Source of the DNA: Minisyncoccota bacterium
GTDB lineage: Bacteria; Patescibacteriota; Minisyncoccia; Minisyncoccales; CG1-02-41-26
Length of the DNA stretch: 64,000 nucleotides
Reading direction: 5' to 3'
NCBI GenBank assembly: GCA_028718785.1
Contig: JAQULB010000002.1
Span: 20,750-84,749 of the forward strand
Positions within the stretch are counted from its first letter, which is position 1; each line of letters opens with the position of its first letter. The notes under the pieces were generated by a model. That model was not told the origin of the DNA. It searched no databases and saw nothing but the letters and a program-made list of their open reading frames with translations. Shown here one piece after another: positions 7,750 through 63,450 of this stretch. A program made the position numbers and the translations under genes.

Positions 7750-7760
7750 TGGTTGGTTTA

Positions 7761-8318
7761 ATGAATAAAAACAAAGCGATTAAAATTTCTAAAGAAATTT
7801 TAAAATATCTTCTAATAAGCGGAGCGATTTTAATTGCCGCGTCTTCCCCCTACTTTGCGTCAAGTTTAATAAGAGATATAAAAAGATTTAAGGCCAAAGA
7901 TAAGCAAAAAGTAAATAGCGCTTTTCAATATTTAAGAAGAAATGGACTTATTAAAGTTGAAAAATATGGTTTTGACGCTCGTATTTCTCTTACCGAAAAG
8001 GGTAAAAAGAGGGCAGGAAAATATCAAATTAACGACTTAAAAATTGAAATTCCTAACAAATGGGATGGAAAATGGCGAGTAATTATTTTTGATATTCCAG
8101 ATATTTCTAAAACAGTTAGAAATATTTTCAGAACTAAATTAAAAGAATTTAATTTTTATTCATTGCAAAAAAGCGTTTGGGTACATCCCTATAATTGCAA
8201 AAAAGAAATTGAGATTTTAAGAGATTTTTTAGGAGCAAATAGCAACCAAATTCAATTTATATTAGCTGAAGAAATTGAGCATGAAGAAAAATTAAAAAAA
8301 GTTTTTAAAATTATTTAA
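7761..8318 (+). CDS. PaaX-family protein: N-terminal wHTH + Cas2-like central domain
   Basis: LRRNGLIKVEK...LTEKGKK (wHTH), then WDGKWRVIIFDIPD...LQKSVWVHPY (Cas2/PaaX-type beta1 Asp and QxSV motif). Paralog of 57301-57903. Confidence 0.7.
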   Translation: MNKNKAIKISKEILKYLLISGAILIAASSPYFASSLIRDIKRFKAKDKQKVNSAFQYLRRNGLIKVEKYGFDARISLTEKGKKRAGKYQINDLKIEIPNKWDGKWRVIIFDIPDISKTVRNIFRTKLKEFNFYSLQKSVWVHPYNCKKEIEILRDFLGANSNQIQFILAEEIEHEEKLKKVFKII

Positions 8319-8322
8319 TTTG

Positions 8323-8360
8323 ATGTGTAATTTTTGTGCGGTCGCATAATAATTACACAT
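8323..8360. repeat. right terminal inverted repeat / hairpin of PaaX-like module 1
   Basis: atgtgtaatttttgtgcggtcgcataataattacacat equals the reverse complement of the left arm with one mismatch and one 1-nt indel. Confidence 0.9.
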
Positions 8361-12614: not shown

Positions 12615-12949
12615 CTCAAAGGAATTGCTTTTTTTTATTTTTATAGTAGGATTTTAGTATAAGCTTGTTTAGCTTATATATCTTTAATAAAAAGGAGGGT
12701 TGATGCAACATGAGACAATTCGTGTCTTTTGCAGGATAGAATTTACAGAGGAAAAACAAAAAAAAGAGGCGCACCCCTCTACTCAAAAGATTTTATAACC
12801 TTCGTTTAATCCCTAAACCTGCAAGGGGGCAAACGAGCAAGATTATAAAGTTTTGGTGCATACCTGGTAGAGTAACGCTTGTAGAAGCACTACCAGGATT
12901 TTATTTATTAAAAAAAATGTTAAGATTTAACTAATATTAGTTTATTATT

Positions 12950-16180: not shown

Positions 16181-17557
16181 ATGGATTTAATGCAAAATAT
16201 AACATCTTTATGCAAAAGGCGGGGTTTTGTTTTTGCTTCCTCGGAAATTTACGGAGGTTTTTCAGCTGTTTATGATATGGGACCATACGGGGTTGAATTG
16301 GCAAACAACATTAAAAATGCCTGGTGGAAAGCAATGGTGCAAGAAAGAGAAGATATAGTGGGGCTTGATTCGGCCATTTTTATGCATCCCAAAATTTGGG
16401 AGGCCTCTGGCCATGTTGGCGGGTTTTCTGACCCATTAACTGAATGTAAAAAATGCCATTCTCGTTTGAGAGTTGATCATTTGCTTGAAGATGTAAATAT
16501 TTTTGCTGATGAAAAAATGACTGAAAAAGAAATTAACGAACTTTTTGATACTCATAAAAGCAAGATAAAATGTCCCAACTGCGCCAAATCTGATTGGACA
16601 AAAGTTAAAAAGTTTAATTTATTAGTTAAGGCCAATTTAGGAAATTTTACTGAGGACTGGAATAAAGACCCAGTTTATCTGCGAGGAGAGACCTGTCAGG
16701 GAATTTATGTTAATTATTTAAATGTTTTAAATTCAAGCAGGGCGCAAATTCCTTTTGGCATTGCTCAAATCGGCAAGGCGTTTCGCAATGAAATAACCGC
16801 TCGTCAATTTATTTTTAGAACTCGCGAGTTTGAACAAATGGAAATGCAGTATTTTTGCTCGCCCGATCAAGAAATGCAAGAATATGAAAAATTAAGGCAA
16901 GCAAGATGGCAGTATTATTTGAATTTGGGCATTGCAGAAAAAAATTTAAAATGGCACAAACACGAAAATTTGGTTTTTTACGCCAAACAGGCCTACGATA
17001 TTGAATATAATTTTCCATTTGGGTTTAAAGAATTAGAGGGTATTCATGCCCGAAGCGATTATGACTTAACTCAGCATAGCAAGTTTTCTGGAGTGGCTTT
17101 GGATTACACTGACCTAAAAACCAAAGAAAAATACATTCCTCATATTATTGAGTCATCAGTGGGAGTGGGGCGGACAATGTTGGCTGTTTTAACAGAGGCC
17201 TATAAAGAAGAAAAAGCTGAGGGGGGTGAAACTCGGATTGTTTTGAAATTTCCCGCTAAATTAGCGCCCATTAAAGCTGCTATTTTTCCCTTATTGGCCA
17301 ACAAGCCAGAATTAGTGGAAAAAGCCAAAGCTATTTTTAATGAATTGAAAAAAGATTTTATGGTTGAGTTTGATGATTCAGGAAATATTGGCAAAAGATA
17401 CCGCAGGCAAGACGAAATTGGTACGCCCCTTTGCGTTACAATTGATTTTGACACTTTAACAGATGACACTGTAACTTTACGCGATAGAGACACAATGAAA
17501 CAAGAAAGAGTAAAAACAATTGATTTAAAAAATGTTTTGCAAGAAAAATTAAAATAA
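16181..17557 (+). CDS. glyQS: glycyl-tRNA synthetase (dimeric class II type)
   Basis: RRGFVFASSEIYGG, LRGETCQGIY, FRNEITARQFIFRTREFEQME and a C-terminal anticodon-binding domain. Confidence 0.9.
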   Translation: MDLMQNITSLCKRRGFVFASSEIYGGFSAVYDMGPYGVELANNIKNAWWKAMVQEREDIVGLDSAIFMHPKIWEASGHVGGFSDPLTECKKCHSRLRVDHLLEDVNIFADEKMTEKEINELFDTHKSKIKCPNCAKSDWTKVKKFNLLVKANLGNFTEDWNKDPVYLRGETCQGIYVNYLNVLNSSRAQIPFGIAQIGKAFRNEITARQFIFRTREFEQMEMQYFCSPDQEMQEYEKLRQARWQYYLNLGIAEKNLKWHKHENLVFYAKQAYDIEYNFPFGFKELEGIHARSDYDLTQHSKFSGVALDYTDLKTKEKYIPHIIESSVGVGRTMLAVLTEAYKEEKAEGGETRIVLKFPAKLAPIKAAIFPLLANKPELVEKAKAIFNELKKDFMVEFDDSGNIGKRYRRQDEIGTPLCVTIDFDTLTDDTVTLRDRDTMKQERVKTIDLKNVLQEKLK

Positions 17558-27169: not shown

Positions 27170-27949
27170 ATGTATATTGATACTCACGCGCATTTAGATG
27201 TGGAGCAATATGACAGCGATAGGGAGCAAGTGATTAAAAACGCCATAAAAAATGGCGTTGGTTTTATTGTTAACCCCAGTTTTGATCTACAAAGCGCCAA
27301 AAAAGCCATTGACTTAGCAAATAAATATGAAAATATTTTTGCTGGTGTTGGGTGCCATCCAAAAACAAGAGAAGAAAGCGGATATGTTTTTAATAAAAAA
27401 GATTATTTAAAAATTATTGGAAACAAAAAAGTGGTGGCTGTTGGGGAGTGTGGCTTGGAATTAGCAAGTTCTAAGATTCCAGAGGGGCAGAAACAAGAAT
27501 TATTAAAACACCAAAAAGAAATTTTTGTTGAGCAAATAAATTTGGCAAAAGAATTTAATTTGCCAATAATTGTGCATTGTCGTAATACCCATAAAGAGGT
27601 TATTGAAATTTTATCAAAAGAAAATAATTTACAAGGAGTTATCCATTGTTTTTCGGGCTCTTGGGGGGATGCTCAAAAATATTTAGAAATGGGGATTTAT
27701 ATTTCGTTTACTGGCATTATTACTTATGCAAACGACTACGATAAAGTGGTAAAAAATACGCCATTGGATAGAATTTTAATTGAAACTGATTGCCCGTATT
27801 TATCGCCTGTTCCGTTGAAGGGGCAAAGAAATGAGCCAGCCAATGTTAAATATGTAGCTCAAAGAATTGCAGAGATTAAGGGGGAGCCATTAGAAAGAGT
27901 TGCTGATATAACCACCCAAAACGCTAAAAAACTCTTTAATTTAAGTTGA
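27170..27949 (+). CDS. tatD: TatD-family metal-dependent hydrolase/DNase
   Basis: IDTHAHLD, GECGLE, HCR, ETDCPYL. Confidence 0.85.
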   Translation: MYIDTHAHLDVEQYDSDREQVIKNAIKNGVGFIVNPSFDLQSAKKAIDLANKYENIFAGVGCHPKTREESGYVFNKKDYLKIIGNKKVVAVGECGLELASSKIPEGQKQELLKHQKEIFVEQINLAKEFNLPIIVHCRNTHKEVIEILSKENNLQGVIHCFSGSWGDAQKYLEMGIYISFTGIITYANDYDKVVKNTPLDRILIETDCPYLSPVPLKGQRNEPANVKYVAQRIAEIKGEPLERVADITTQNAKKLFNLS

Positions 27950-27972
27950 TTTTGGCGTACAATATAACATTT

Positions 27973-30360
27973 ATGGCAGAACAAGAAAAAAAATACGAGC
28001 CAAATAAAATTGAGCCCAAGTGGCAGAAATATTGGGAGAAGGAAGGGTTAAACAGGGCAAAGGACTTTGACAAAAATCCCGCCCAAAGTGCTACGCATAA
28101 TGAGGCGGGCAGGCCAAAGTTTTATTGTTTGGATATGTTCCCATACCCCTCTGGCGCTGGATTGCATGTGGGCCATCCTAAGGGCTACACTGCCACTGAT
28201 ATTATTTCTCGCTATAAGAGAATGAATGGCTTTAATGTATTTCATCCAATTGGCTGGGACGCTTTTGGCTTACCAGCAGAAAACTATGCCATTAAAACCA
28301 AAGTCCACCCCAATGAAAGCACGCATAAAAATATAGCTCATTTCAAAGAGCAGATTAAGTCATTGGGGTTTTCTTATGATTGGGAAAGAGAAATAGACAC
28401 CTCGTCACCCGAGTATTACAAATGGACGCAATGGTTTTTTCTTTTTCTTTACAAAAATGGCTGGGCATACAAAGCAAAAGCAGCCGTTAATTGGTGCGAT
28501 TCCTGCCAAACAGTTTTAGCCAACGAGCAAGCGCAAGATGGAAAATGTGAAAGATGCTCTAGCAATGTTTTACAAAAAGATTTGGAGCAGTGGTTTTTTA
28601 AAATAACTGATTTTAGCGAGGAGTTATTAGCTGGCTTGGATAAGATTGATTGGCCAGAACCAATTAAAATAATGCAAAAAAATTGGATCGGCAAATCTGA
28701 AGGATATGAGATAGATTTTAACATAAAAAATAGTGTAACAAAGTTAGCCGATCGGCACAGTTTGTTACAGATTAGAGTTTTTACAACAAGGATAGATACA
28801 ATTTTTGGCTGTACTTATTTGGTAATAGCCCCTGAACACGAGATAGCCAAGAATCAAGAATTGGGAATTAAGAATTATGAAGAAGTAAAAGATTACGTTG
28901 AGACAGCGAAAAAGAAAAGCGAACGGGACAGGCAAGCTGATGTAAAAGATAAAACGGGCGTGAAGTTGGAAGGCGTTACGGCAATTAATCCAGCTAATGG
29001 AAAAGAAATTCCAATTTTTGTGGCTGATTATGTTTTATCAAGTTATGGCACGGGAGCAATAATGGCAGTTCCCGCTCAAGATGAAAGGGATTTTGAGTTT
29101 GCGAAAAAATTTAATTTGCCAATTGTTGAAGTTCCAAATTCTATGGAAATGGCAGAAAAAGGCATAGCAAAGAAAAAAATAAATTATAGATTAAGAGATT
29201 GGCTGGTTTCACGCCAGCGTTATTGGGGAGCTCCCATTCCCATTGTTTATTGCGAGAAATGCGGAGAGCAGGCAGTGCCAGAAAAAGATTTGCCGGTATT
29301 GCTGCCAACAGATGTTGATTTTATGCCAACAGGCGAATCGCCCTTGGTAAAATCAAAAGAATTCCATAAAGTTAAATGTCCAAAATGCGGCGGGCCAGCT
29401 AGGCGGGAAAGCGATACTATGGATACTTTTGTTTGTTCGTCTTGGTATTTTTTTCGCTATCTTGACCATAAAAATAAAAATGAATTTGCTGATAAAAAAT
29501 TAATTGATTATTGGCTACCAGTTGATTTGTATGTGGGCGGGGCGGAACATGCGGTTTTACATCTTTTATATGCTCGTTTTTTTGCTAAGGCGTTGAAAAG
29601 AATTAGCTTGATTGGCTTTGACGAACCATTTTTAAAGCTGAGAAATGTTGGTTTAATTCTGGCCGAAGGTGGAGTAAAAATGAGCAAATCAAAGGGCAAT
29701 GTTATAAACCCTGATGATATTGTTAAAGAATACGGCGCTGATACTTTAAGGATTTACGAAATGTTTATGGGGCCTTTTGACCAAGCTATTGCTTGGGATA
29801 CAAAAGGGGTTGGGGGGGCGAGAAGATTCTTAGACAGGATATATAAATTAAAAGAAAGAGTTTCTGCTAAGAGCAGTAATTTAGAGCTTGAAAAAGCAGT
29901 TAATAAAATAATTAAAAAAGTCGGGGAAGATATTGAACAGATGAAATTTAATACAGCCATTTCTTCGTTAATGATTTTGCTTAACGAAATGGAAGGGGAA
30001 GAAGAAATTTCGGGTGATATTTTTGAAAGGTTTTTATTGCTTTTAGCGCCTTTTGCCCCGCACATCGCTGAGGAGTTATATGAAGGATTCAAGATTCAAG
30101 ATTCAAGATTCAAGAATGGATCAATCTTTGAGCAAGAGTGGCCAAAGTACGATACCGCCTTACTAAAGGAGGAAAAAGTTAATATAGTGGTTCAAATAAG
30201 CGGCAAGGCAAGAGGAGTTGTGGAAGTTGAAACAGGTGCGAGCGAACAAGAGGTTTTAGATATAGTCAAAGCAGATTCAAAGATAAATAAATGGATAGAA
30301 GGGCAAAATATTAAAAAAGTCATTTTTATCCAAAATAAATTAATTAATCTAGTTTTATAG
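27973..30360 (+). CDS. leuS: leucyl-tRNA synthetase
   Basis: PYPSGAGLHVGHPKGY (HIGH), VKMSKSKGN (KMSKS), CP1 editing domain. Start placed at the ATG at 27973. Confidence 0.95.
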   Translation: MAEQEKKYEPNKIEPKWQKYWEKEGLNRAKDFDKNPAQSATHNEAGRPKFYCLDMFPYPSGAGLHVGHPKGYTATDIISRYKRMNGFNVFHPIGWDAFGLPAENYAIKTKVHPNESTHKNIAHFKEQIKSLGFSYDWEREIDTSSPEYYKWTQWFFLFLYKNGWAYKAKAAVNWCDSCQTVLANEQAQDGKCERCSSNVLQKDLEQWFFKITDFSEELLAGLDKIDWPEPIKIMQKNWIGKSEGYEIDFNIKNSVTKLADRHSLLQIRVFTTRIDTIFGCTYLVIAPEHEIAKNQELGIKNYEEVKDYVETAKKKSERDRQADVKDKTGVKLEGVTAINPANGKEIPIFVADYVLSSYGTGAIMAVPAQDERDFEFAKKFNLPIVEVPNSMEMAEKGIAKKKINYRLRDWLVSRQRYWGAPIPIVYCEKCGEQAVPEKDLPVLLPTDVDFMPTGESPLVKSKEFHKVKCPKCGGPARRESDTMDTFVCSSWYFFRYLDHKNKNEFADKKLIDYWLPVDLYVGGAEHAVLHLLYARFFAKALKRISLIGFDEPFLKLRNVGLILAEGGVKMSKSKGNVINPDDIVKEYGADTLRIYEMFMGPFDQAIAWDTKGVGGARRFLDRIYKLKERVSAKSSNLELEKAVNKIIKKVGEDIEQMKFNTAISSLMILLNEMEGEEEISGDIFERFLLLLAPFAPHIAEELYEGFKIQDSRFKNGSIFEQEWPKYDTALLKEEKVNIVVQISGKARGVVEVETGASEQEVLDIVKADSKINKWIEGQNIKKVIFIQNKLINLVL
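28078..28109. repeat. 32-nt CCCGCC-N20-GGCGGG element, copy 3 (in-frame in leuS)
   Basis: cccgcccaaagtgctacgcataatgaggcggg; encodes PAQSATHNEAG in the same codon phase as copies 1 and 2. Confidence 0.85.
28733..28770. repeat. GCCGATCGGC-core palindromic element (variant) in-frame in leuS
   Basis: gtgtaacaaagttagccgatcggcacagtttgttacag, with tgtaacaaa/tttgttaca arms. Encodes VTKLADRHSLLQ. Confidence 0.85.
30086..30113. repeat. heptamer tandem repeat inside leuS (gattcaa x4)
   Basis: Perfect 4x7 bp; encodes GFKIQDSRFKN. Confidence 0.9.
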
Positions 30361-36970: not shown

Positions 36971-39178
36971 CTAATAGTCGTTTTTCTTTAATTTTTCTAC
37001 GGCCTCAGATAACATTTGGCAGTATAGATTTAGGCCAATGCGGTTAACCGAGCCAGATTGCTCACGGCCCAAAATATTGCCTGCTCCTCGAATTTCCAAG
37101 TCCGCTTGCGCAATTTTGTATCCACTACCCAACTCTTCAGCTTGTTTTAAGGCAGTAAGTCGCTGTTTGGCCAAACCCTTTAAAGTATTTTTGGGATATA
37201 AAAAGTAGGCGTTGGCTTGGGTATTGCTTCGGCCAATCCGGCCTCGCAACTGATAGGCCTGGGCCAAGCCCAAGCGGGTGGCGTTGTCCACAATTAAAGT
37301 GTTGGCATTGGAAATATCTAATCCGTTTTCAATAATAGTGGTGGCTAAAAGCAAGTTAGTTTTTCCGGTTTGAAAATCGCTTAAGGCCTTTACAATTTCT
37401 TTGTCTGGCAGTTTGGCGTGCAAAACGCCAATTTTAACTTTTGATTTTTCTAACTCAAAGCGTATCAAAGTTGGCCGATCGGCACAGATTGACACACTTT
37501 TGGAAGATGGTTTTTTGTTAAGAAGTTCCTCTAACAAAAGCTTAAAGGCATTGATTGTTTCCACTCTGTTGTGCAAGAAATAAATTTGTCCGCCTCGTTT
37601 TAGTTCATTTTCAATAGCGTTTTTTATAACATCTTTTTTAAATGGTAAAATAAATGTCTTTACTGGTTTACGGCCTTGGGGAGGAGTTTGAATAAAGCTG
37701 ATTTCTTTTAAAGACGACAAAGCCAAGTAAAGAGTGCGGGGGATTGGCGTGGCCGAAAGATAAAGAATGTCAATTGAGGGATTTGTTGTTCTTAATTTTT
37801 CTTTTTGTTTAACACCAAACCTTTGCTCATCATCAATGATTAAAAGTCCCAAGTTTTTAAATTCAATATTTTTAGCTAAAACGCTATGGGTGGCAATCAA
37901 AATATCCACGTTGCCATCTTTTAAGCCCTGTAGAATTTTGGGTTTTTCGTTTTTGTTTTGAAGCCGTGAAAGTAAAGCTACTTTTACGGGCAAGCCAGTT
38001 AGCCGTTTCTGAAAAGTATTAAAATGTTGGGTGGCCAAAATGGTGGTGGGGCACATAATTACTGCTTGCTTGCTGTTTTCAGCAGCCAATGTGGCTGCCC
38101 TTAAAGCCACTTCGGTTTTGCCAAAACCAACATCCCCGCAAATTATGCGGTCAATGGGTTTTTGTTTGCTAAAATCGTTTTCAATTTCGTTTAAACACTG
38201 GGATTGGTCTGGGGTTAAAGTATAAGGAAAAGTGGCCTCTAATTTTTCGTAAATTTCTGTTTTGCTGTATGCGGGTCTAGTGGCAAGTTCCTTTAAAGCA
38301 AACATTTCCAAAAGTTCTTTGGCAAATTTTTCAGCGTCTTCTTTTATTTTATATTTTGTTTTTTGCCAAAATATACCTCCAAGCCGGGATAATTTTGGCT
38401 CAACAAAACCAAGATATCGCGTTAGCTTTCTCTCAAGCCCAACAGGCACAAAAAGTTTGTCTCCTTGGGCGTATTCTAAAACATAGTATTCTTTGGCTGG
38501 CGAAGTGGCGGAAACCTTTTCAGGGTACGCTTGTTCGCCCAGCGCGCTCACTCGCTCCTGTCCTCGGCTCGCTCTCTCACTATGTTCGAACCCTGCCCGC
38601 TCGCCTGCGGATGCCCCTGAAAAGGTTTCTGCCACTTCGCTTTCTTGAACCGTTTGTATTTCTAAGAATCGGGAGATGCCGTGGTCAAGGTGTACTAAAT
38701 AATCCCCGGTTTTTAGGCCTTTTAAATCGCTAAAGATTTTTTGGGATTTTAATTTCTTTTTTAAAACATTTTTGGCGGTTTCTTCGTTGGTTATTTCAAT
38801 TGGCAGTTTTTCGATTGTTTCAATGGTGTTGCCTAAAAAATCTAAACGAAAAGCAAAAAAGGAGTTAATGGGGAAAATTTCCACAACTCCTCCAATTTGA
38901 GAAAATTCGCCTGGCTCGGTTATTTTGAAAACTTTTTCATAGCCCATTTCATCAATTTTTTTTAAAACTTCAGAAATGTTTATTTTTTGATTTGCTTCTA
39001 AAAATAAAGTATTGTCTTGCCAAAAGGCCTGGGTTTTTTGAGATTTTTTAATATGGCTTAAATTTTCTGTAAACCAAAGAATTTCTTTTTCAAGAAAGTA
39101 GGGGGTGATACTAACAATTAAAGCGCTTTGGAGCGCTTTTTTACTTGCTAAATCCATATTATGGTTATAGTATGGCAA
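36971..39178 (-). CDS. mfd: transcription-repair coupling factor Mfd (short N-terminus)
   Basis: RNAP-interacting domain LVHLDHGI...KLFVPV, helicase motifs GDVGFGKTEVA, DDEQRFGV, RGRIGR. Carries two repeat inserts. Confidence 0.9.
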   Translation of the reverse strand: MPYYNHNMDLASKKALQSALIVSITPYFLEKEILWFTENLSHIKKSQKTQAFWQDNTLFLEANQKINISEVLKKIDEMGYEKVFKITEPGEFSQIGGVVEIFPINSFFAFRLDFLGNTIETIEKLPIEITNEETAKNVLKKKLKSQKIFSDLKGLKTGDYLVHLDHGISRFLEIQTVQESEVAETFSGASAGERAGFEHSERASRGQERVSALGEQAYPEKVSATSPAKEYYVLEYAQGDKLFVPVGLERKLTRYLGFVEPKLSRLGGIFWQKTKYKIKEDAEKFAKELLEMFALKELATRPAYSKTEIYEKLEATFPYTLTPDQSQCLNEIENDFSKQKPIDRIICGDVGFGKTEVALRAATLAAENSKQAVIMCPTTILATQHFNTFQKRLTGLPVKVALLSRLQNKNEKPKILQGLKDGNVDILIATHSVLAKNIEFKNLGLLIIDDEQRFGVKQKEKLRTTNPSIDILYLSATPIPRTLYLALSSLKEISFIQTPPQGRKPVKTFILPFKKDVIKNAIENELKRGGQIYFLHNRVETINAFKLLLEELLNKKPSSKSVSICADRPTLIRFELEKSKVKIGVLHAKLPDKEIVKALSDFQTGKTNLLLATTIIENGLDISNANTLIVDNATRLGLAQAYQLRGRIGRSNTQANAYFLYPKNTLKGLAKQRLTALKQAEELGSGYKIAQADLEIRGAGNILGREQSGSVNRIGLNLYCQMLSEAVEKLKKNDY
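37457..37500. repeat. GTGTCAA..GCCGATCGGC..TTGACAC palindromic element in-frame in mfd
   Basis: aaagcgtatcaaagttggccgatcggcacagattgacacacttt is about 95% identical to the 57214-57259 copy. Encodes (minus strand) SVSICADRPTLIRF. Confidence 0.9.
38500..38640. mobile_element. 141-bp MITE-like GC-rich element with 26-bp terminal inverted repeats, in-frame in mfd
   Basis: gcgaagtggcggaaaccttttcaggg (38500-38525) against cccctgaaaaggtttctgccacttcgc (38614-38640). Length 141 = 47 codons. Encodes ...ETFSGASAGERAGFEHSERASRGQERVSALGEQAYPEKVSATSP... Confidence 0.8.
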
Positions 39179-45985: not shown

Positions 45986-48900
45986 ATGACCCAACTTGCC
46001 AAACCAATTGAAAAAATTCGCAAAAGAGATGGAAATTTAGCTGATTTTGAGCAAGATAAAATTACCAAAGCAATTGCTAAAGCATTGTCAGCCAGTGGGC
46101 AGGAAAGTCAAGAAACAGCAGAAAAGGTTTCCAACAAAGTTGTGGATTTTTTGCAAAGAAGGTTCAAAGAAGATCAAATTCCTGAAGTTGAGCAAATCCA
46201 AGATATTATTGAAGAGGTTTTAATGTTAGAGGAATTGGTTGAAGCGGCCAAGGCCTTTATTCTTTACAGAGAACAAAGAAGAGTATTGAGAGAAACAGAA
46301 GTTATTTCAGATGAAGCAGTGGAAATTTTTGAAAAATATATCGGTGAAATGGATTGGCAGGTAAAAGAAAATGCCAACATGGCTTATTCTTTGCAGGGGC
46401 TAAATCATTACGCAGTTTCTGTTTTAACAAAAAGATATTGGCTTAATAAAGTTTATCCAAAATATATAAGAGAGGCCTATAATTCTGGGGATATGCACAT
46501 TCATGATTTGGATTGTTTGGCAACATATTGCAATGGCTGGGATTTATATGATTTATTGATAAGAGGGTTTGGGGGAGTGGCTGGGAAAGTGGAAACATCT
46601 CCAGCCAAACATTTTAGAGTGGCATTGGGGCAGGTGGTGAATTTTTTCTATACAATGCAAGGTGAATGTTTTTCAAAAGATACACAAGTGTTAACGGATT
46701 CTGGGTGGAAATATTTTTTTGATGTGGCAAAAAGTGATAAGATTTTTACGCTAAATAATCAAACCAACGAAATTGAATTGCAAGAACCCTTAAAATTTTT
46801 TGAATTTGATTATAATGGCGAACTTTATAATTTTAAAACAAAAAAATTAGACCTAATGGTTACTCCCAACCACAATATGGTAGTTGACCAATATTGTCCA
46901 GGATGTTCGTTTAAGCAATTATCTCAATTTCAAGAGCAAGAAAAAGAAGTTGGAGCAGAAAATAGTTCAATTGGGGTTTTAAATCAAGTGAAAAAACAAG
47001 TTTTTGCTATTGAACCCCTTTATTATCGTAAATTTATTAAAGCAAAGGATTTTAATCCAAATCAGCATTTTGTTCCCAAGCAATCAGTTTGGATGGGGGA
47101 AGAAAAAGAATTTTTTGAGTTGCCAAGCATTGAAATTAAACAATATCGAAATTTTGGCAAAATATACGAAACAATTAAAATAGCTCCTAAAAAGATTTTA
47201 ATAAACGATTGGGTAGCCTTTTTTGGTTTTTTCTTGGCCGAAGGCAATATCTATAAAAGAATAAGAAAAAGAGAAGAAGGAAAATCATATCACGAATATT
47301 GTGTGCGGGTTTCTCAAAATCAAGGTCTGGTTAGTCAGGATTTTGAAGCAATTTTGCAAAAACTACCCTTTAATTACCGAAAAAAAATAACAGACAATAA
47401 AATTACTTTTGAAATTACTGACAAGCAACTTTTTTCTTATTTAGAGCAATTTGGCAAAGCAGGCAATAAATTTATTCCAAGCGATATTAAGAAGCTGCCA
47501 AAGGAACAATTGAAAGTTTTGTTTGATTGGATGATGAAAGGGGATGGTCATATTAGTAATGGCTTGGTGGAGTATTCTACTAAAAGTCAAAAATTAGCTG
47601 ATGATTTTCAGGAAATAGTTTTGAAATTGGGCTGGAGCGCCAACATATATAAAAGAACAAAGGGAGAGTTTGCTTGGTTTGATGTGGGCGTTTCAATGGC
47701 AAAGCATTTTAGATTTCAGCCAGAGAGTGTGCAAAAAGTTTTTTATCAGGACAAAGTTTATTGTTTAGAGGTGCCAAACCATACTTTGTATGTTAGAAGG
47801 AACGGAAAGGCCTGTTGGAGCGGTAATTCAGCTGGGGCGCAGGCCTTATCAAGCATTGATACTTTGTTAGCGCCCTTTATTAGGTATGATAGTTTAGATT
47901 ATGCTCAGGTAAAACAAGCAATGCAGGAGTTTTTATTTAACTGCGCTGTGCCCACAAGGGTTGGGTTCCAAACTCCTTTCAGTAATGTTACTTTAGATGT
48001 TCATCCATCTCTTTCTTTTGCCAAACAGCCAATTATTATTGGAGGCAAGCCCCAAAAAGAAACCTACGCTGAATTTCAAGAAGAGATGAATATGTTTAAC
48101 AACGCCTTTTTTGAAGTAATGATGCAGGGCGATAAAAACGGACGGCCGTTTACTTTTCCCATTCCCACAATAAATATAACCAAAGATTTTCCCTGGGACG
48201 ATTCAAAATTGGATTTAATGTGGCAAGCAACCGCTAAATACGGCATTTGTTATTTTACAAATTTTATTCAATCAGAGATGAAACCAGAGGATGTTAGAAG
48301 TATGTGCTGTCGGCTTCGGCTTGACAATAAAGAGCTTTACAAAAGAGGCGGGGGCTATTTTGGCGCAAACCCTCTAACCGGCAGTTGTGGCGTGGTTACA
48401 ATCAACCTTCCTCGGCTTGGTTATTCAACTAAAACTAAAAAAGAATTTTTTGAAAAATTAGCCAATATAATGGATGTGGCGCGAGATTCTTTGGAAATAA
48501 AAAGAAAAGCCCTTGAGGATTTGATAAAAAAAGGGCTTTACCCATATTCAAAAGTTTATTTATCGGGCATTGAAAAAATGCGAGGTAAATATTTTGGCAA
48601 TCATTTTTCAACCATTGGTTTACTGGGACTTAACGAATGTTTGCTCAATTTTATGGGTGAGGATATTGGCTCAAAAAACGGGCAGGCCTTGGCTTTGGAG
48701 GTGCTGGACTTTATGAGAAATAGAATTATTGGTTATCAAAAAGAAACCGACAACTTATATAATTTAGAGGCCACGCCCGCTGAAGGAACAAGCCACAAGT
48801 TAGCTTTAAAAGATCAAGAAAAATGTCCGGGCATTATACAAGCAGGCACAAAAGAGGCTCCATATTATACCAATAGCTCTCAACTGCCAGTTAATTACAC

Positions 48901-49309
48901 TGATGATATTTTTCACACATTAGAGCTTCAAGACGAACTGCAATGTAAATATACGGGAGGGACTGTTCAGCATTTGTTTTTGGGCGAGCAAATAACTGAT
49001 ATTTCCAATATGAAGGCCTTGATAAAAAAAGTGTTTGAGACATTTCATCTGCCTTATATTACTTTAACCCCAACATTTTCTATTTGTCCATCGCACGGAT
49101 ATATATCCGGAGAACACTGGACTTGCCCAAAGTGCACCATTGAACAGCCCTGCGAGGTTTATTCAAGAATAGTTGGGTATATTAGACCAGTAATGCAATG
49201 GCATAAAGGAAAAGCCCAAGAGTTTAAAGAGCGAAAAACTTTTCAAGTGCCTCAAGTTGTAGAAAAAATTTATGAAAATAGGGGGGTTACAGAAGTTAAC
49301 ATTGATTGA
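45986..49309 (+). CDS. nrdD: anaerobic ribonucleoside-triphosphate reductase NrdD, interrupted by an intein
   Basis: ATP-cone IRKRDGNLADFEQDKI; C-terminal Zn site CPSHGY...CPKC; glycyl-radical motif SRIVGYIRP. The extein is about 720 aa once the 387-aa intein is removed. Confidence 0.9.
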   Translation: MTQLAKPIEKIRKRDGNLADFEQDKITKAIAKALSASGQESQETAEKVSNKVVDFLQRRFKEDQIPEVEQIQDIIEEVLMLEELVEAAKAFILYREQRRVLRETEVISDEAVEIFEKYIGEMDWQVKENANMAYSLQGLNHYAVSVLTKRYWLNKVYPKYIREAYNSGDMHIHDLDCLATYCNGWDLYDLLIRGFGGVAGKVETSPAKHFRVALGQVVNFFYTMQGECFSKDTQVLTDSGWKYFFDVAKSDKIFTLNNQTNEIELQEPLKFFEFDYNGELYNFKTKKLDLMVTPNHNMVVDQYCPGCSFKQLSQFQEQEKEVGAENSSIGVLNQVKKQVFAIEPLYYRKFIKAKDFNPNQHFVPKQSVWMGEEKEFFELPSIEIKQYRNFGKIYETIKIAPKKILINDWVAFFGFFLAEGNIYKRIRKREEGKSYHEYCVRVSQNQGLVSQDFEAILQKLPFNYRKKITDNKITFEITDKQLFSYLEQFGKAGNKFIPSDIKKLPKEQLKVLFDWMMKGDGHISNGLVEYSTKSQKLADDFQEIVLKLGWSANIYKRTKGEFAWFDVGVSMAKHFRFQPESVQKVFYQDKVYCLEVPNHTLYVRRNGKACWSGNSAGAQALSSIDTLLAPFIRYDSLDYAQVKQAMQEFLFNCAVPTRVGFQTPFSNVTLDVHPSLSFAKQPIIIGGKPQKETYAEFQEEMNMFNNAFFEVMMQGDKNGRPFTFPIPTINITKDFPWDDSKLDLMWQATAKYGICYFTNFIQSEMKPEDVRSMCCRLRLDNKELYKRGGGYFGANPLTGSCGVVTINLPRLGYSTKTKKEFFEKLANIMDVARDSLEIKRKALEDLIKKGLYPYSKVYLSGIEKMRGKYFGNHFSTIGLLGLNECLLNFMGEDIGSKNGQALALEVLDFMRNRIIGYQKETDNLYNLEATPAEGTSHKLALKDQEKCPGIIQAGTKEAPYYTNSSQLPVNYTDDIFHTLELQDELQCKYTGGTVQHLFLGEQITDISNMKALIKKVFETFHLPYITLTPTFSICPSHGYISGEHWTCPKCTIEQPCEVYSRIVGYIRPVMQWHKGKAQEFKERKTFQVPQVVEKIYENRGVTEVNID
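46667..47827 (+). mobile_element. intein with LAGLIDADG homing endonuclease domain in NrdD
   Basis: Starts at Cys (MQGE|CFSKDTQVLT), block B TPNHNMVV, LAGLIDADG motifs VAFFGFFLAEGN and LFDWMMKGDGHI, ends ...LYVRRNGKACWSGN|S. 1161 nt = 387 aa. Confidence 0.85.
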
Positions 49310-52882: not shown

Positions 52883-52958
52883 AAAAGTGTACAAATCTGT
52901 GCCGACTCGCCTTGCTGGAGCCTTCGGCGTAGCGCAGGTCGGCTAACTTTTGACACGG
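52883..52958. repeat. long (nested) variant of the GTGTCAA..GCCGA|..|TCGGC..TTGACAC element
   Basis: aaaagtgtacaaatctgtgccga[ctcgccttgctggagccttcggcgtagcgcaggt]cggctaacttttgacacgg. The 34-nt core insertion is identical to that in the reverse complement of 62451-62526. Confidence 0.9.
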
Positions 52959-53009
52959 TTTATTTTCTCATTATTTTGTGGTATTGTTTGACAATAAGAG
53001 AGAAATCAT

Positions 53010-53186
53010 ATGAAAACAATTTTAATTGTGATTTTAGCGGGTTTAGTGATAATAGCAGGAGCGTTTTATTGGTATTCTTGGAGGCCGACACAGATTAGGC
53101 AGGAATGTGTAGACGCTACTCTTTCGGGGGTTGTAGTAGATGGAGCTTATGAGTTATGTTTATTAAGACACGGATTAGAAAAATAA
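53010..53186 (+). CDS. hypothetical 58-aa membrane-anchored peptide
   Basis: Hand-translated MKTILIVILAGLVIIAGAFYWYSWRPTQIRQECVDATL...; below the track cutoff. Confidence 0.35.
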   Translation: MKTILIVILAGLVIIAGAFYWYSWRPTQIRQECVDATLSGVVVDGAYELCLLRHGLEK

Positions 53187-56773: not shown

Positions 56774-57061
56774 ATGGCACAAGGCAAAAAGAGCTTTTTT
56801 GAGGAGATGATAGAAATTACAGAGGATGGTCTTCAAGATGTTCAAAACGCTAACGCCAATGCTGGGGTAATTATGGCTTTTGATGGAGATATTCATTTGG
56901 ACAATATGGCGGTATCTATGATGGGAAGATATCAGATTCCAGTAGAGGAAATGGCCATGTTCATTGTGGCAATGGGAGTTAAGATTTTTCAAGAAGCGAA
57001 AAGGGAAGTTTCTATTACTGTGGTGATGGAAACCCCCAAGATTGAGCAAAAGGTTGAGTAA
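56774..57061 (+). CDS. hypothetical 95-aa protein
   Basis: ATG 8 nt after TAGGAGGAG; the hairpin aaatgcctttcca...tggaagggcattt follows the stop. No motif recognised. Confidence 0.5.
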   Translation: MAQGKKSFFEEMIEITEDGLQDVQNANANAGVIMAFDGDIHLDNMAVSMMGRYQIPVEEMAMFIVAMGVKIFQEAKREVSITVVMETPKIEQKVE

Positions 57062-57213
57062 AATGTATATAATAAAAAATGCCTTTCCATATATATTGGA
57101 AGGGCATTTATATTATAGAAAGGCGATTGGGGCATTTGAAAGGGAATTTGAAGGGGTACTTGGAAGACATTTGGAAGGCATTTTATGTATACTTTATTTA
57201 TAGAAGTGAGTTT

Positions 57214-57259
57214 AAAAGCGTGTCAAAGTTGGCCGATCGGCACGGATTGACACACTTTT
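57214..57259. repeat. GTGTCAA..GCCGATCGGC..TTGACAC element, left flank of PaaX-like module 2
   Basis: aaaagcgtgtcaaagttggccgatcggcacggattgacacactttt, 42 nt upstream of the ATG. Confidence 0.9.
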
Positions 57260-57300
57260 AAGTTTAGTGATAAAGTAAAAAATAAATAGAGAATAGAAAT

Positions 57301-57903
57301 ATGAAGTATTCTTTCCAACAAAAGAAAAGGTCTGTCACTTATAAACTTTTCAGCAAAGGCATAGACGCAACAACCCATATTTTATTAGCCTTGTATGAAA
57401 ATACCCAGTTAGCTAGAGAAGGTTTTCTTAGAGGTTGCCCTCAATATTCTGGTTTTGGATTAGCAAGAGCGGTATTTGGGAAAGATAGTTATCCACAGCC
57501 CAAAAAAGAAGCAATCCGTACCGATCTTTCTCGTTTGCAAAAAGAAGGTTTGATAAAAAAAGACCCAAAACAAAAAATTTATTACTTAACTGATAAGGGA
57601 AAAGAACTTGTAAGCTACATCGAAAATCGTTTTTTAATTTTACAAGAACCTTGGGATAAAAAGTTTCGTGTTGTTATTTTTGATGTGCCAGAAAAGAAAA
57701 GATATTGGAGAGTTTTCTTAAAAAGAGAGTTAGAATTAATGCAATTTCAACAACTCCAAAAAAGTGTTTACATTGGCAAGTATCCTTTGCCAGCAAGCTT
57801 GATAAAAGAAATAGAGGCCGATAATATGGGGGAGTTTGTTTATATTTTTACAGCGGAGAATATTGACAGGCAAGATGAGATTTTAAAAATGCTAAATGAA
57901 TAG
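57301..57903 (+). CDS. PaaX-family protein: wHTH + Cas2-like central domain (paralog 2)
   Basis: LSRLQKEGLIKKD...LTDKGKE (wHTH), then PWDKKFRVVIFDVPEKKR...LQKSVYIGKYP. Homologous to 7761-8318. Confidence 0.7.
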   Translation: MKYSFQQKKRSVTYKLFSKGIDATTHILLALYENTQLAREGFLRGCPQYSGFGLARAVFGKDSYPQPKKEAIRTDLSRLQKEGLIKKDPKQKIYYLTDKGKELVSYIENRFLILQEPWDKKFRVVIFDVPEKKRYWRVFLKRELELMQFQQLQKSVYIGKYPLPASLIKEIEADNMGEFVYIFTAENIDRQDEILKMLNE

Positions 57904-57941
57904 TGTGTCAATCCGTGCCGATCGGCACGGATTGACACACT
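57902..57941. repeat. perfect 40-bp palindrome of the same family, right flank of PaaX-like module 2
   Basis: agtgtgtcaatccgtgccga|tcggcacggattgacacact; overlaps the stop codon. Confidence 0.95.
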
Positions 57942-58022
57942 ATTTAATAAAGAAATTAGCAACGGGGTTGACAAATAGATGTGGTTTTGATAGGTTTGCT
58001 GTAAGTAAATAAAATAATAAAT

Positions 58023-58295
58023 ATGGAACAAACAAGCCTAAGTTCAAGCGTTTCAACAAAGAAAAGTTCAAAAAAGTTGGCAATTTTTTTAATTTTGGGA
58101 GTGGTAATTCTGGCCGGTATAGCTGGAATTTTTTATTATAAATATAAAAGTAATGGAGTTTATGGTGAGCTTGCCGAACCACCGAAATTGTTTGAGAAAG
58201 GGGATTATAAGGTGGAAGACAGAGCTGATGGCCAGTATATTGTGGTGGATAAAGTGGGCCTAACCGCCAAGGTTCCAGATGGCTGGAGGGGTTGA
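58023..58295 (+). CDS. hypothetical membrane-anchored protein, possibly truncated
   Basis: N-terminal TM helix, then a short ectodomain ending ...KVPDGWRG-stop. Two hairpins follow immediately. Confidence 0.4.
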   Translation: MEQTSLSSSVSTKKSSKKLAIFLILGVVILAGIAGIFYYKYKSNGVYGELAEPPKLFEKGDYKVEDRADGQYIVVDKVGLTAKVPDGWRG

Positions 58296-59334: not shown

Positions 59335-60774
59335 ATGAGTAAGCTAACGAAAATTTCCAAAAATAAAATAAAAAATAATGGGCAAATTTATACCCCAGAT
59401 TTTATAGTAAATAATATCCTTGATATTGTCGGATATGATGGGAATAGTATTTTAGAGAAAGATATTATTGATAATAGTTGCGGAAACGGAGCTTTCTTAA
59501 TCGGAATAGTAAAAAGATATTGTGGGGCTTTCTATAAAAAATACGGTAAGTCCGATAATGAAAAACTAAAAAGCCACTTGGAGAAATATATTCATGGTGT
59601 TGAGGTGCAAAGCGAGGAAATTGGAGGCTGTGTCGCTAACTTAAATAATGAAGTTAAAAATTTTGGGTTATTAAACGTTAAATGGGATTTAATTTGCGCA
59701 GACGCATTATCGGTTGATAGTTATAACGGGAAAATGGATTTTGTAGTAGGAAATCCTCCTTATGTTAGAGTTCATAACCTAAATGAAAGCTATAATAAAG
59801 TGAAAGAATTTAAATTTTGCAAAAAAGGAATGATCGATTTGTATATAGTTTTCTTTGAAATAAGTTTAAAAATGCTCAATAAATCAGGAAAGATGTGTTT
59901 AATAACTCCCAGTTCATTTCTGAGAAGCAATGCTGGTGCAGAATTAAGGAAATATATATTTGAGAACAAAAATTTAACGAAAGTCATAGATTTGGAGCAT
60001 TTTCAACCATTTAATGCTACAACCTACACCATGATAACCCTTTTTGAAATGGGTAAAAAATGTAATCAAATAGAATACTATATATACGACGAGGATAAAA
60101 AAGAACCAAAAAAGATAGAGAGTTTAAACTATTCAGATATATTTATAGATGGAAAGATCTATTTTTCAAAAAATGAAAATTTGAAATTTTTAAGAGAAGT
60201 AGAGGTTTATAATACTAATAACAAAGCAGATTTTGATGTTAAGAATGGTTTTGCAACGCTGGCTGATAGTGTTTTTATTAACAAGTTAAACTTTGAGAAT
60301 AAAACCATTCCCGTATTAAAGGCCTCTACTGGTAAATGGTATAGCTGTTTTTTTCCATATGATGAGGCGGGAGAACCAATCAATTTTGATGAAATAAAGC
60401 AAAACTCACAGCTATATAACTATTTATTGGACAATAAGGCGATGTTAGAAGAAAGAAGTTTAGAAAAAAATAGTAGCTGGTTTTTATTTGGTAGAAGTCA
60501 GGGGATAAAAGATGTGTTTAAGAATAAAATAGCGATAAATACAATAATAAAAGATGTTGACAGTATAAGGATTGAAGAAGTTCCGTCTGGTAGTGGTATA
60601 TATAGTGGATTATATGTCTTATCAAATATGTCTTTTAACAAAGTAAAGGAGAGCGTTAAGAATAGTGATTTTATAAATTATATTAAATTATTAAAAAATT
60701 ATAAAAGTGGAGGATACTACACTTTTTCTTCTGGCGAATTAAAGAATTTTTTGAATTATAAAATAAAAAGATAA
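59335..60774 (+). CDS. N6-adenine DNA methyltransferase (gamma class, Eco57I/TaqI-like)
   Basis: GQIYTPDFIV (motif X), DNSCGNGAFL (motif I), VVGNPPYVRV (motif IV, NPPY), followed by a large C-terminal target-recognition region. Confidence 0.8.
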   Translation: MSKLTKISKNKIKNNGQIYTPDFIVNNILDIVGYDGNSILEKDIIDNSCGNGAFLIGIVKRYCGAFYKKYGKSDNEKLKSHLEKYIHGVEVQSEEIGGCVANLNNEVKNFGLLNVKWDLICADALSVDSYNGKMDFVVGNPPYVRVHNLNESYNKVKEFKFCKKGMIDLYIVFFEISLKMLNKSGKMCLITPSSFLRSNAGAELRKYIFENKNLTKVIDLEHFQPFNATTYTMITLFEMGKKCNQIEYYIYDEDKKEPKKIESLNYSDIFIDGKIYFSKNENLKFLREVEVYNTNNKADFDVKNGFATLADSVFINKLNFENKTIPVLKASTGKWYSCFFPYDEAGEPINFDEIKQNSQLYNYLLDNKAMLEERSLEKNSSWFLFGRSQGIKDVFKNKIAINTIIKDVDSIRIEEVPSGSGIYSGLYVLSNMSFNKVKESVKNSDFINYIKLLKNYKSGGYYTFSSGELKNFLNYKIKR

Positions 60775-60778
60775 TAAT

Positions 60779-61489
60779 ATGGAAAATAAAGAATTTTTAG
60801 AAATAATAAGCTCGTCATTTGTTAAGTTTTTAGAAACCTCTGCCAGAAGTAATAAAAAATTAAAAATACTTCACGGGGCGATAGCTATAGATATAGAGAA
60901 AAGGCTTGGGAAAGGTTATGCCATTTGCTCTCTCGGTTGTGGCGAGGGTAAGGAAGTTAAAATAAGTGGGAGATATATGGATAAAACGGTTGACATAGCA
61001 GTTTATAAGGGCGAGAACGACATAGCGGCGATCGGGGTTAAGTTTGTAATGAATAATTATTCCCAAAATTCAAACAATTATTTTGAAAATATGCTTGGGG
61101 AAACTGCCAATATAAGGGCGAATAAAAAGAAGTATTTTCAAATTTTAATTCTTCCCGAAGAATTACCCTACTATGATAATTCTGGGAAGATTACGCATTG
61201 GGAGAAAATTACAACTCATAACATCAATAAATATATTAAATTGTCTAATGACGATGAAGATGTATTTTTTCATACACCTATCAAAACGCTTATTTGCATA
61301 ATCAAACTGCCAAAACTTGATATTCAAACAATAACCAACAAAACCCAATATAAAAAACATTATTTAGATATTGGGAGTATTAAATTGGATTTTTCCACAA
61401 ACATATCGAATAGTTTTGGTGAAAGGGTGGTTTTGAATGATTATGAAGACTTTATCAAAAAAGTAGTTTTCTTTCTTAAAAGTATCTAA
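60779..61489 (+). CDS. putative type II restriction endonuclease partner
   Basis: Starts 5 nt after the methyltransferase stop and shares its extreme AT-richness. KTVDIAV...AAIGVKFV resembles a degenerate PD-(D/E)XK core. Family not recognised. Confidence 0.45.
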   Translation: MENKEFLEIISSSFVKFLETSARSNKKLKILHGAIAIDIEKRLGKGYAICSLGCGEGKEVKISGRYMDKTVDIAVYKGENDIAAIGVKFVMNNYSQNSNNYFENMLGETANIRANKKKYFQILILPEELPYYDNSGKITHWEKITTHNINKYIKLSNDDEDVFFHTPIKTLICIIKLPKLDIQTITNKTQYKKHYLDIGSIKLDFSTNISNSFGERVVLNDYEDFIKKVVFFLKSI

Positions 61490-62450: not shown

Positions 62451-62526
62451 CCGTGTCAAAAGTTTGCCGACCTGCGCTACGCCGAAGGCTCCAGCAAGGC
62501 GAGTCGGCGCAGATTGACACGCTTTT
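62451..62526. repeat. long (nested) variant of the palindromic element, inverted relative to 52883-52958
   Basis: ccgtgtcaaaagtttgccgacctgcgctacgccgaaggctccagcaaggcgagtcggcgcagattgacacgctttt starts 1 nt after the DUF1566 stop. Confidence 0.9.
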
Positions 62527-62747
62527 GGTTTGATCTTTAGGTGGGGGAATAATTTTATAAAAAAAAGGAGAAACAGCATAATTGCTAATGGGGAAAGGCG
62601 GCGACCTTAAAACCATTTTTTGTTTATGCGAGTTTCTCCTATAGAGGAGAAGGGCAGGTTGGGCGAAAGCTGTCAAAATTCCGTGGGAGATGGATATTTT
62701 GACGACTTTAGGCCTGCCCCTCTTTTTAAAAAATTTTTAAGGCGCTT

Positions 62748-62767
62748 GCCACCCTTAAGGGGGTGGC
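62748..62767 (-). terminator. hairpin after the Cys-rich peptide gene
   Basis: gccaccc-ttaagg-gggtggc, 9 nt downstream of the stop; T-rich tract a few nt further on the minus strand. Confidence 0.45.
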
Positions 62768-62775
62768 TTTGGTTT

Positions 62776-63015
62776 TTAATGGTGATGGGGTGGCTCGTGG
62801 TGTTCCCACGGTTGTCCACCGTAAGAACAACAAGGCGTTGCTCCGTTTCCGTTTTTGCAACCATCAATGTTGGCATTTGTGCCAACTAAACACCCAACAG
62901 CTGACATTCCCTCCTTACATCCAGCAGTGGGATTAGATCCCGGCTGACAAATCACGCATCCCCTTGTTTCGTGAGTGTTGAAAAGTTCCGGTTTTTCGTA
63001 TTTTCTTTTTTCCAA
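62776..63015 (-). CDS. 79-aa Cys-rich peptide with YxxPxL-type leader and His-rich tail (RiPP-precursor-like or metal-binding)
   Basis: TTG start 7 nt after AAGGAGG. MEKRKYEKPELFNTHETRG then five Cys sites about 10 aa apart (RGC..C, AGC, VGC, DGC, PCC), ending HHEPPHHH. G+C-richer than its surroundings. Confidence 0.6.
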   Translation of the reverse strand: MEKRKYEKPELFNTHETRGCVICQPGSNPTAGCKEGMSAVGCLVGTNANIDGCKNGNGATPCCSYGGQPWEHHEPPHHH

Positions 63016-63290
63016 AAGATTACCTCCTTTTTCAAAGTATAGAACAAAATTTGTTTATTTTTTATACCACAAAATTTGTAGATGTGCAAATAAAAACAGG
63101 GAAAGCGTTTTGGTCTGGTTTATTTTAACAACCCCTTACGGAGTTAAAATAAAGCAATTTTTTAAAACGCTTTCCCTTTGTTTTGGAGGTCTTTTGCTTG
63201 ACGAAAAAAAGCAAAAGACAGAATTTAAAAGCATAGCATTAACCCAAAAACAAGTCAAAAAAAATACAAGTAAATATCAAGTAAAATTGT

Positions 63291-63319
63291 TTGACAAAAC
63301 AGGGAATTTTTGCTATAAA
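63291..63319 (+). promoter_or_regulatory. sigma70-like promoter TTGACA-17-TATAAA
   Basis: Read directly, about 130 nt upstream of the 63451 ORF. The leader contains a terminator-like hairpin. Confidence 0.55.
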
Positions 63320-63450
63320 TACAAGCATAATGGCGTAAAAGTAAAATTTTTAAGGTGGTATTTTTCGCCACTTAAAACCCCTCCACCTTATTTACTTTTA
63401 CGCTCTTTTTTTAAAGTTGATTTTTATTTTAGGTGTGATAAAATCTAAAA

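Follow-up and report, generated by a model that had tools for sequence, protein, structure and literature searches.

The 64-kb window analyzed here, a 64,000-nt stretch of contig JAQULB010000002.1 from a Minisyncoccota bacterium, contains a gene for a 200-residue protein of the PaaX_M domain family that lies between two palindromes of 46 nt, an arrangement here called module 2. Comparison with related loci shows that this palindrome-gene-palindrome layout is a rule of the protein family and that the variable arms of the palindromes follow the protein encoded between them. With a probability of roughly 0.55, the palindromes are specific binding sites of that protein, and gene and sites form an autoregulated bracketed module whose sites are occasionally copied elsewhere. 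Module 2 consists of the following features.

57214 to 57259, no strand: upstream imperfect palindrome, AAAAGCGTGTCAAAGTTGGCCGA followed by TCGGCACGGATTGACACACTTTT, 46 nt, 79% self-complementary, an asymmetric "hybrid" form and the proposed operator.
57247 to 57276, plus strand: predicted sigma-70-type promoter of the module 2 gene, with 10 of 12 consensus matches.
57301 to 57903, plus strand: module 2 gene, encoding the 200-aa winged-helix and Cas2-like (PaaX_M) protein, as assigned with Pfam, AlphaFold, and Foldseek.
57899 to 57944, no strand: downstream perfect palindrome, 46 nt, overlapping the module 2 stop, with a DNA fold of -25.1 kcal/mol (z = -11.7).

The preliminary description of this DNA had placed the gene between palindromes at these sites, and both the coordinates and the sequences are confirmed. 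The downstream element had been given as a perfect 40-bp palindrome at 57902 to 57941. It is perfect and encloses the TAG stop codon (57901 to 57903), with a true extent of 46 nt. Its 34-nt core occurs once in the window compared to none expected from shuffles, and the center GCCGATCGGC occurs five times compared to 0.31. A paralog with the same layout, module 1, had also been described and is found as stated.

7711 to 7749, no strand: module 1 upstream palindrome ATGTGTAATTATTATGCGACCGCACAAAAAAATACACAT, an inverted repeat of the downstream flank.
7749 to 8318, plus strand: module 1 paralog, 189 aa, with a probable ATG start at 7761 and an identity of 28% with the module 2 protein (E=1e-11).
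8323 to 8360, no strand: module 1 downstream palindrome, matching 7711 to 7749 in inverted orientation.

The two flanks of module 1 are the sole copies of their palindrome within the window, in agreement with the earlier account. The relationship that had been seen between the termini of the two modules (TGTGTAA versus GTGTCAA) carries little weight because the arms vary freely across the family.

The comparison set comprises 40 loci (552 kb) with 44 gene copies, obtained by a family-profile search of one-genome-per-species contigs from other Patescibacteria. According to an automatic criterion, a strong palindrome lies on both sides of at least 28 of the 44 gene copies and on one side of 8 more; in some of the remainder, e.g., L005/L009 and L035, weaker or AT-rich palindromes are visible by eye. 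The orthologs L001, L003, and L005 (89%, 65%, and 54% identity) show two flanking palindromes each. The stretches up to 150 nt away from the gene ends, which make up 2.4% of the 552 kb, hold 52 of 108 strong palindromes (binomial p = 7e-54) and 47 of the 62 palindromes centered on CGATCG, CGGCCG, CACGTG, CGTACG, or CAATTG (p = 9e-63). Palindromes are enriched about 30-fold at the gene ends, and two of those scored as lying elsewhere flank a further, unsearched paralog in L017. The center is CGATCG in 45 of 64 flanks, and in the half-site logo, TCG(T) marks the center and TTG positions +11 to +13, with the remainder variable. The two flanks of a gene agree even at nonpalindromic positions, which suggests copying or gene conversion; L003, L005, and L007 have them in direct order, and L008 and module 1 have them inverted. 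Paralogs within one genome each carry their own arms, as can be found for three in JABMPZ01 and two in the window. The bracketing, the enrichment, and the paralog-specific arms give strong support, beyond the window, to the functional link between protein family and palindromes that had been proposed for the two modules.

The family behind these numbers is large: a threshold of E≤0.001 yields 4,987 cluster representatives, and the stricter E≤1e-10 leaves 2,335. Its locus in the window is syntenic and vertically inherited, adjoining clpB, and is stable down to 65% protein identity. No relatives were found in a viral collection and phage records, and plasmid records contain canonical PaaX-family regulators only. 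Searches of the open-access literature aimed at this association found no description tying PaaX_M-like proteins of the candidate phyla radiation (CPR) to flanking palindromes.

Conservation of the palindromes is that of a footprint. In L024, L025, and L026, the coding region aligns, and the intergenic flanks are unalignable except for 44-bp palindromes. Within the clade of the window, the arms change fast, and they do so together with the winged helix: in L001, both the recognition helix (EAIRTDLSRLQKEG) and the outer arms (GTGTCAA) match those of module 2, and L006 has the helix EAIRANLSRLQKDG, with TD replaced by AN and E by D, together with the different arms GCAGTCAC. Across 33 loci, a partial Mantel test of arms against winged helix, with the Cas2-like domain controlled, gives r = 0.15 (permutation p = 0.0035), and the converse test is not significant; because shared ancestry inflates correlations of this kind, the result counts as supporting evidence only. 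The mismatches in the arms comprise 22 G:T and 26 A:C pairs without strand bias, which fits the recognition of duplex DNA and speaks against an RNA hairpin.

The upstream palindrome is connected to the predicted promoter as well. The right arm of the palindrome forms a perfect TTGACA hexamer as the -35 box; a spacer of 18 nt separates it from a TG-extended -10 box (TAAAGT), which lies 25 nt before the ATG. Among the upstream palindromes of related loci, 9 of 33 reach a promoter score of at least 9, compared to 2.7% of random positions. Both the mismatches and the promoter bear on an action at the RNA level, in which hairpins at the two mRNA ends would be bound or cut by the Cas2/VapD-like domain as a ribonuclease controlling its own transcript. 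Cas2 and VapD relatives include endoribonucleases, hairpins stand at both gene ends, and a palindrome near the start codon would fall in the 5' leader. However, the sense strand has no excess of G:U-compatible mismatches (22 versus 26), the promoter predicted in the window and in the nearest relatives lets transcription begin only past the upstream palindrome, and no Rfam family matches, so that this explanation is very improbable. A PADLOC search found no defense family.

The reading with the lowest probability of all, and one already disfavored, takes the palindromes as ordinary bidirectional terminators or insulators without a specific tie to the protein. The window-type element has an A-run and a T-run (AAAAG...CTTTT), and three copies lie right at or after stop codons. 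However, a scan of 56900 to 58200 for a GC-rich stem with a T-run flags neither flank of module 2. The 30-fold enrichment, the common CGATCG center, the paralog-specific arms, and the footprint conservation would be unexpected for terminators, and the copies inside the genes for leucyl-tRNA synthetase (LeuRS) and Mfd could not terminate transcription harmlessly.

The assignment of the module 2 protein as PaaX/Cas2-like in the preliminary description is borne out by Pfam PF20803 (PaaX_M, the central Cas2-like domain of PaaX), which matches with E=2.1e-14 and 53.8 bits (cut-off, 24). PF07848, the PaaX-type N-terminal winged helix, gives a weak match of 17.7 bits, under its cut-off of 24.8. The AlphaFold model nevertheless places a winged helix at residues 69 to 96; the mean predicted local distance difference test score (pLDDT) is 68.7, with values mostly above 80 over residues 80 to 190 and of 72 to 79 near residues 101 to 120. 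A Foldseek search of the PDB with this model returns E. coli PaaX (8a39; E=1.4e-5) as the top match, followed by M. tuberculosis Rv0674 and then several Cas2 structures. A sequence search of the PDB with only the Cas2-like half returns only noise. The protein stops at residue 200, directly past the Cas2-like domain, and shows no match to PF08223 (PaaX_C), the domain for phenylacetyl-CoA sensing. With TIGR02277, it scores 39.2 bits compared to a cut-off of 264.55. Judged by these profiles, the protein belongs to the PaaX_M domain family without being a PaaX equivalog.

PaaX of E. coli and Pseudomonas shares with the module 2 protein the order of a winged helix followed by PF20803, the structural match, the widely spaced half-sites, and the position of a site at its own promoter, which PaaX represses. 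In contrast to PaaX, the protein comprises only 200 aa without the PaaX_C ligand domain and remains far below the TIGR02277 cut-off. No paa genes occur among the ~50 window proteins, which are housekeeping, and the neighbors differ between related loci. The sites here bracket the gene whatever its neighbors are and have been copied into coding regions. A further difference concerns the Cas2-like domain. D119, R123, F127, D128, P130, R137, L144, Q153, and S155 are invariant across 33 diverse family members, and D128 occupies the position of the metal-binding or catalytic Asp of Cas2; both canonical PaaX-family proteins that were compared have Gln at this position. The likeness to Cas2 of CRISPR-Cas systems extends to a ferredoxin-like fold, an hhhFD motif closing strand 1, a QxSV motif, and the association with palindromic repeats of ~30 to 46 bp. 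Unlike in CRISPR-Cas systems, there is no cas1 gene and no repeat-spacer array in the window, the fold is fused to a winged helix, and the gene lies between only two repeats; Cas2 models score below their cut-offs.

The operator of E. coli PaaX is TGATTC-N27-GAATCA, and the protein shuts down its own promoter, Px, by keeping RNA polymerase away (PMC9493321). Its Cas2-like domain is taken to be a dimerization motif (PMC9493321). On an actinobacterial plasmid, repeats of the type ATGTAAC...GTTACAT lie on both sides of a canonical PaaX-family gene, so two-sided sites are not foreign to the PaaX family. The palindromes are read as binding sites, and the upstream one as an operator, because of the geometry and autorepression of PaaX, the overlap with the -35 hexamer, and the lack of strand bias among the mismatches.

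The following mechanism is proposed for the module. The protein would be a shortened PaaX-type regulator, with a winged-helix DNA-binding domain and a Cas2-fold domain and without the ligand-binding C-terminal domain, that sits as a dimer on the ~40-bp palindrome. The variable winged helices would read the variable outer arms carrying TTG at +11 to +13 from the center, with the conserved Cas2-like domains placed over the conserved CGATCG center. At the upstream site, which overlaps its own -35 hexamer, the protein may exert autorepression of the kind known for E. coli PaaX at Px. The downstream site would close the bracket and might serve as another operator, as a roadblock, or as a terminator. 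Gene and two sites make up a self-contained module that is inherited vertically and conserved across Patescibacteria. In the lineage of the window, the site has also been copied behind two genes and in frame into LeuRS and Mfd, at surface loops in both proteins, so that a small repeat family has arisen similar to repetitive extragenic palindromic (REP) sequences or Rickettsia palindromic elements (RPEs).

Several points weigh against this reading. In most loci, the protein would be a regulator whose sole detectable sites flank its own gene, without an evident regulatory output. The downstream neighbor is convergent in 13 of 38 loci and the downstream site is still present, so this site is not simply the operator of the next gene. 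The overlap with a -35 box is not universal because the upstream palindrome ends less than 20 nt from the start codon in several loci. Essential coding regions are odd locations for an operator. The replicated asymmetric and long forms of the element need a duplicative process that binding alone does not explain, and the invariant D128 hints at a role beyond binding.

The window holds four further elements, all of which had been listed by their positions (28733, 37457, 52883, and 62451) and are found by an nhmmer profile of the short copies, giving six copies in 64 kb.

28732 to 28771, plus strand: variant copy 28733 with the arms TGTAACAAA and TTTGTTACA, read in frame as SVTKLADRHSLLQ within the leuS editing domain (LeuRS, 27946 to 30360).
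37448 to 37522, minus strand: 75-nt in-frame insertion in mfd (36971 to 39178), encoding the 25 aa LNKKPSSKSVSICADRPTLIRFELE and holding the copy at 37457 to 37501.
52883 to 52958, minus strand: long-form copy with a 33-nt GC-rich central insert, 15 nt past the stop of an HtrA-like protease gene.
62451 to 62526, plus strand: long-form copy with a 33-nt central insert, directly past the stop of an Lcl_C-domain gene, opening a ~1-kb region missing in L001.

The earlier account had recognized these copies as a family but had missed the long variant with the 33-nt insert, the asymmetric short form, and the location of two copies inside genes. In the copies at 52883 and 62451, a near-identical 33-nt GC-rich block splits the center GCCGA/TCGGC. 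The common short form is asymmetric, with AAGTTGG as the left inner arm and ACGGA or ACAGA as the right inner arm. Besides the upstream flank of module 2, this form occurs at 37457 and in the groundwater metagenome loci L047 and L050, which shows the copies to be related by descent and not by convergence; a metagenome scan for the window-type right half returns 5 loci only. Copy number varies between relatives, since L001, with the 89% identical ortholog, has the syntenic site without the 62451 copy and the ~1 kb behind it. No target-site duplications are seen at the borders of the copies.

The copies inside LeuRS and Mfd leave both proteins full-length. The LeuRS segment with the element exceeds by 9 residues both its counterpart in T. 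thermophilus and that in the nearest homologous fragment. The homologs found with a 140-aa query are short fragments of at most 64% identity, so this insertion is judged only against distant sequences and in a loop of variable length. For Mfd, the copy at 37457 lies in frame on the minus strand within the peptide KSVSICADRPTLIRF, and the 25-residue insertion is missing from homologs with 88%, 86%, 83%, and 79% identity; the DNA of L051 shows the empty site. Presence/absence polymorphism, for which a comparison of strains had been suggested as a check, is found here between relatives for the Mfd copy, missing in these homologs and L051, as well as for the 62451 copy. The same Mfd loop contains CGATCG-centered palindromes with other arms in L052 (TGATGCAAAACAGAGCGATCGCTCAGAATTGCATCA), L054 (GTGACAAGTAAGAACGATCGTTCTTACTTGTCAC), and L055 (GGGACAAACGGGGACGATCGTTCTAATTTGTCCC), which may reflect either repeated insertion or a single old insertion with turnover of the arms. 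Of the 120 Mfd homologs compared, 97 show the loop in its basal form and 17 have insertions of various kinds, and these varied insertions mark the loop as permissive.

Several Mfd homologs from CPR organisms (P0381, P0382, P0386, P0391, P0393, P0410, and others) carry unrelated Arg/Gly-rich insertions of 16 to 37 residues in this loop. The alignments suggest the loop as a general hotspot or tolerant site for in-frame insertions. The window mfd gene shows a second in-frame insertion of ~140 nt (38497 to 38640, minus strand), which is GC-rich and has 24-bp terminal inverted repeats, GAAGTGGC(A/G)GAAACCTTTTCAGGG. It adds ~35 to 45 residues in the CarD/RID region, is missing in close homologs, and represents a distinct element similar to miniature inverted-repeat transposable elements (MITEs).

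Such in-frame copies resemble RPEs, which are likewise short palindromic repeats in frame in surface loops of essential genes (here, LeuRS and Mfd) and keep the frame open in either orientation. In contrast to RPEs of 100 to 150 bp, the element here has 46 bp, comes from another phylum, and is tied to a specific protein gene that it flanks. It differs from MITEs by the absence of target-site duplications at the copies and of a transposase in the window.

A system analogous to REP sequences and their REP-associated tyrosine transposases (RAYTs), as proposed in the preliminary description, would explain the copies by a new enzyme. Here, the winged helix would recognize the palindrome as a hairpin or cruciform, and the Cas2-fold domain would cut at the CGATCG center and copy or move the palindromes, with the gene itself staying single and vertically inherited. 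The analogy holds for the layout, the vertical inheritance, and the covariation, and fails for the type of enzyme and, as judged from the 10 to 20 kb around most loci, for the copy number. As with REPs, REPINs, and their RAYTs, a single-copy gene lies in synteny between its own palindromes, paralogs have their own palindrome classes, and dispersed copies occur after genes. In favor of an enzyme, copies have been made by descent, with both the asymmetric hybrid form and the 33-nt insert recurring; the Mfd copy is a clean 75-nt insertion missing in 88% identical relatives, and the palindromes in the Mfd loop of L052, L054, and L055 have lineage-specific arms. A fixed center within variable arms is reminiscent of a stem that varies around a conserved site of nicking, the family but not the canonical PaaX-family proteins keeps D128 without exception, and this protein alone is consistently tied to the palindromes, with no transposase or recombinase among the ~50 window proteins.

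Against this, Pfam and NCBIfam show no Y1 HUH or other transposase or recombinase domain in either paralog or in the ~50 window proteins, and the Cas2-like domain of PaaX is viewed as a dimerization motif (PMC9493321). REPs are described as having one end marked by a conserved tetranucleotide, GTAG or CGTC (PMC3733652), and the present elements start with AAAAGYGTGTCAA, without such a head. The palindrome is present in most loci as its two flanks only within 10 to 20 kb, with extra copies in the window, L003, L015, L020, and L021. REP/RAYT systems have dozens to hundreds of dispersed extragenic copies per genome, compared to the usual two copies within 10 to 20 kb here, or six in the window, some of which are within genes. 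No target-site duplication is visible, and recurrence in the Mfd loop may reflect tolerance instead of targeting, as the loop takes unrelated insertions too. The analogy is a less probable alternative to the binding-site reading. Of similarly low probability is its wider form, a new palindrome-handling class across the CPR in which a putative nuclease of the Cas2 fold, fused to a winged helix, would cut or nick its own CGATCG-centered palindromes centrally and so copy them genome-wide.

The agreement of the flanks at asymmetric positions (direct in L003, L005, and L007; inverted in L008 and module 1) would also fit a mobile cassette, in which the whole palindrome-gene-palindrome unit moves in an IS200-like or integron-cassette-like manner, its ends being recombination sites and solo palindromes being scars. 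The unit is compact (~730 bp), is bounded by matching repeats in any gene context, and is present in some genomes as two, three, or more divergent copies. However, the paralogs are only ~28 to 50% identical, with no identical multicopy cassettes; the locus is stable beside clpB; phage and viral records lack the family and plasmid records hold only canonical regulators; and in-frame copies within genes cannot be scars. A mobile cassette is unlikely on these grounds, and the binding-site reading remains preferred.

Palindromes of these types have been observed in other settings as well. In a related groundwater organism (L046, 197 to 1131), two window-type palindromes stand around a gene for a 234-aa winged-helix and NUDIX protein (389 to 1093), so the element can bracket other genes too. 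In L005/L009, the palindrome type TGTGTCAAAATCCTGCGATCGCAGGATTTTGACACA occurs twice (~12765 to 12800 and 17275 to 17310, 4.5 kb apart) at gene boundaries, with no adjoining PaaX_M-like gene, and a further variant of this type lies inside a Memo/AMMECR1 gene (~18839). The Logan contig L053 from the same organism stops within the 33-nt insert of the 62451 long form; a break is expected at a multicopy repeat. The ~1 kb missing in L001 (window positions 62451 to 63446) contains a Cys-rich 79-aa open reading frame (ORF) on the minus strand (62776 to 63015; ...CVICQPGSNPTAGCKEG...CCSYGG...HHEPPHHH), whose sequence looks like that of a small secreted or modified peptide. L006 was considered as an empty site for copy 52883 and rejected: the upstream gene differs, and only a repeated promoter-like motif is common to both. 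This motif, TTATTTTGTGGTATTGTTTGACAATAAGAGA, precedes a small membrane-peptide ORF in the window (52958 to 53040) and occurs three times in L006 (777 to 814, 2740 to 2782, and 3324 to 3355).

The window as a whole is housekeeping chromosome of 35.7% G+C, with genes for aminoacyl-tRNA synthetases, FtsA/FtsZ, ClpB, Mfd, TopA, and transfer-messenger RNA. The names of its homologs and an Mfd entry of 100% identity assign it to the Parcubacteria/Pacebacteria section of the CPR. The anaerobic ribonucleotide reductase NrdD at 45986 to 49309 contains a LAGLIDADG-type intein, likewise in L003, and topA of L052 has an intein as well. At 59335 to 61489, 1.4 kb downstream of module 2, an Eco57I/N6-adenine methyltransferase-like gene and a 236-aa gene are possibly a restriction-modification pair.

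The PaaX_M-like family is found in genomes with very few regulators and few mobile elements. The bracket rule provides hundreds of natural protein-site pairs, usable for reading the recognition code of winged helices, and gives a concrete candidate for the maker or maintainer of short palindromic repeats in CPR genomes. It accounts for some of the unexplained insertions in essential CPR proteins, e.g., Mfd and LeuRS. Should the Cas2-like domain prove to be catalytic, the family would represent something new, a second, independent partnership of palindromes with a domesticated nuclease beside REP/RAYT. Cutting by this domain would make it a functional parallel of REP/RAYT on the Cas2 fold and could bear on the first tie of Cas2 to palindromic repeats.

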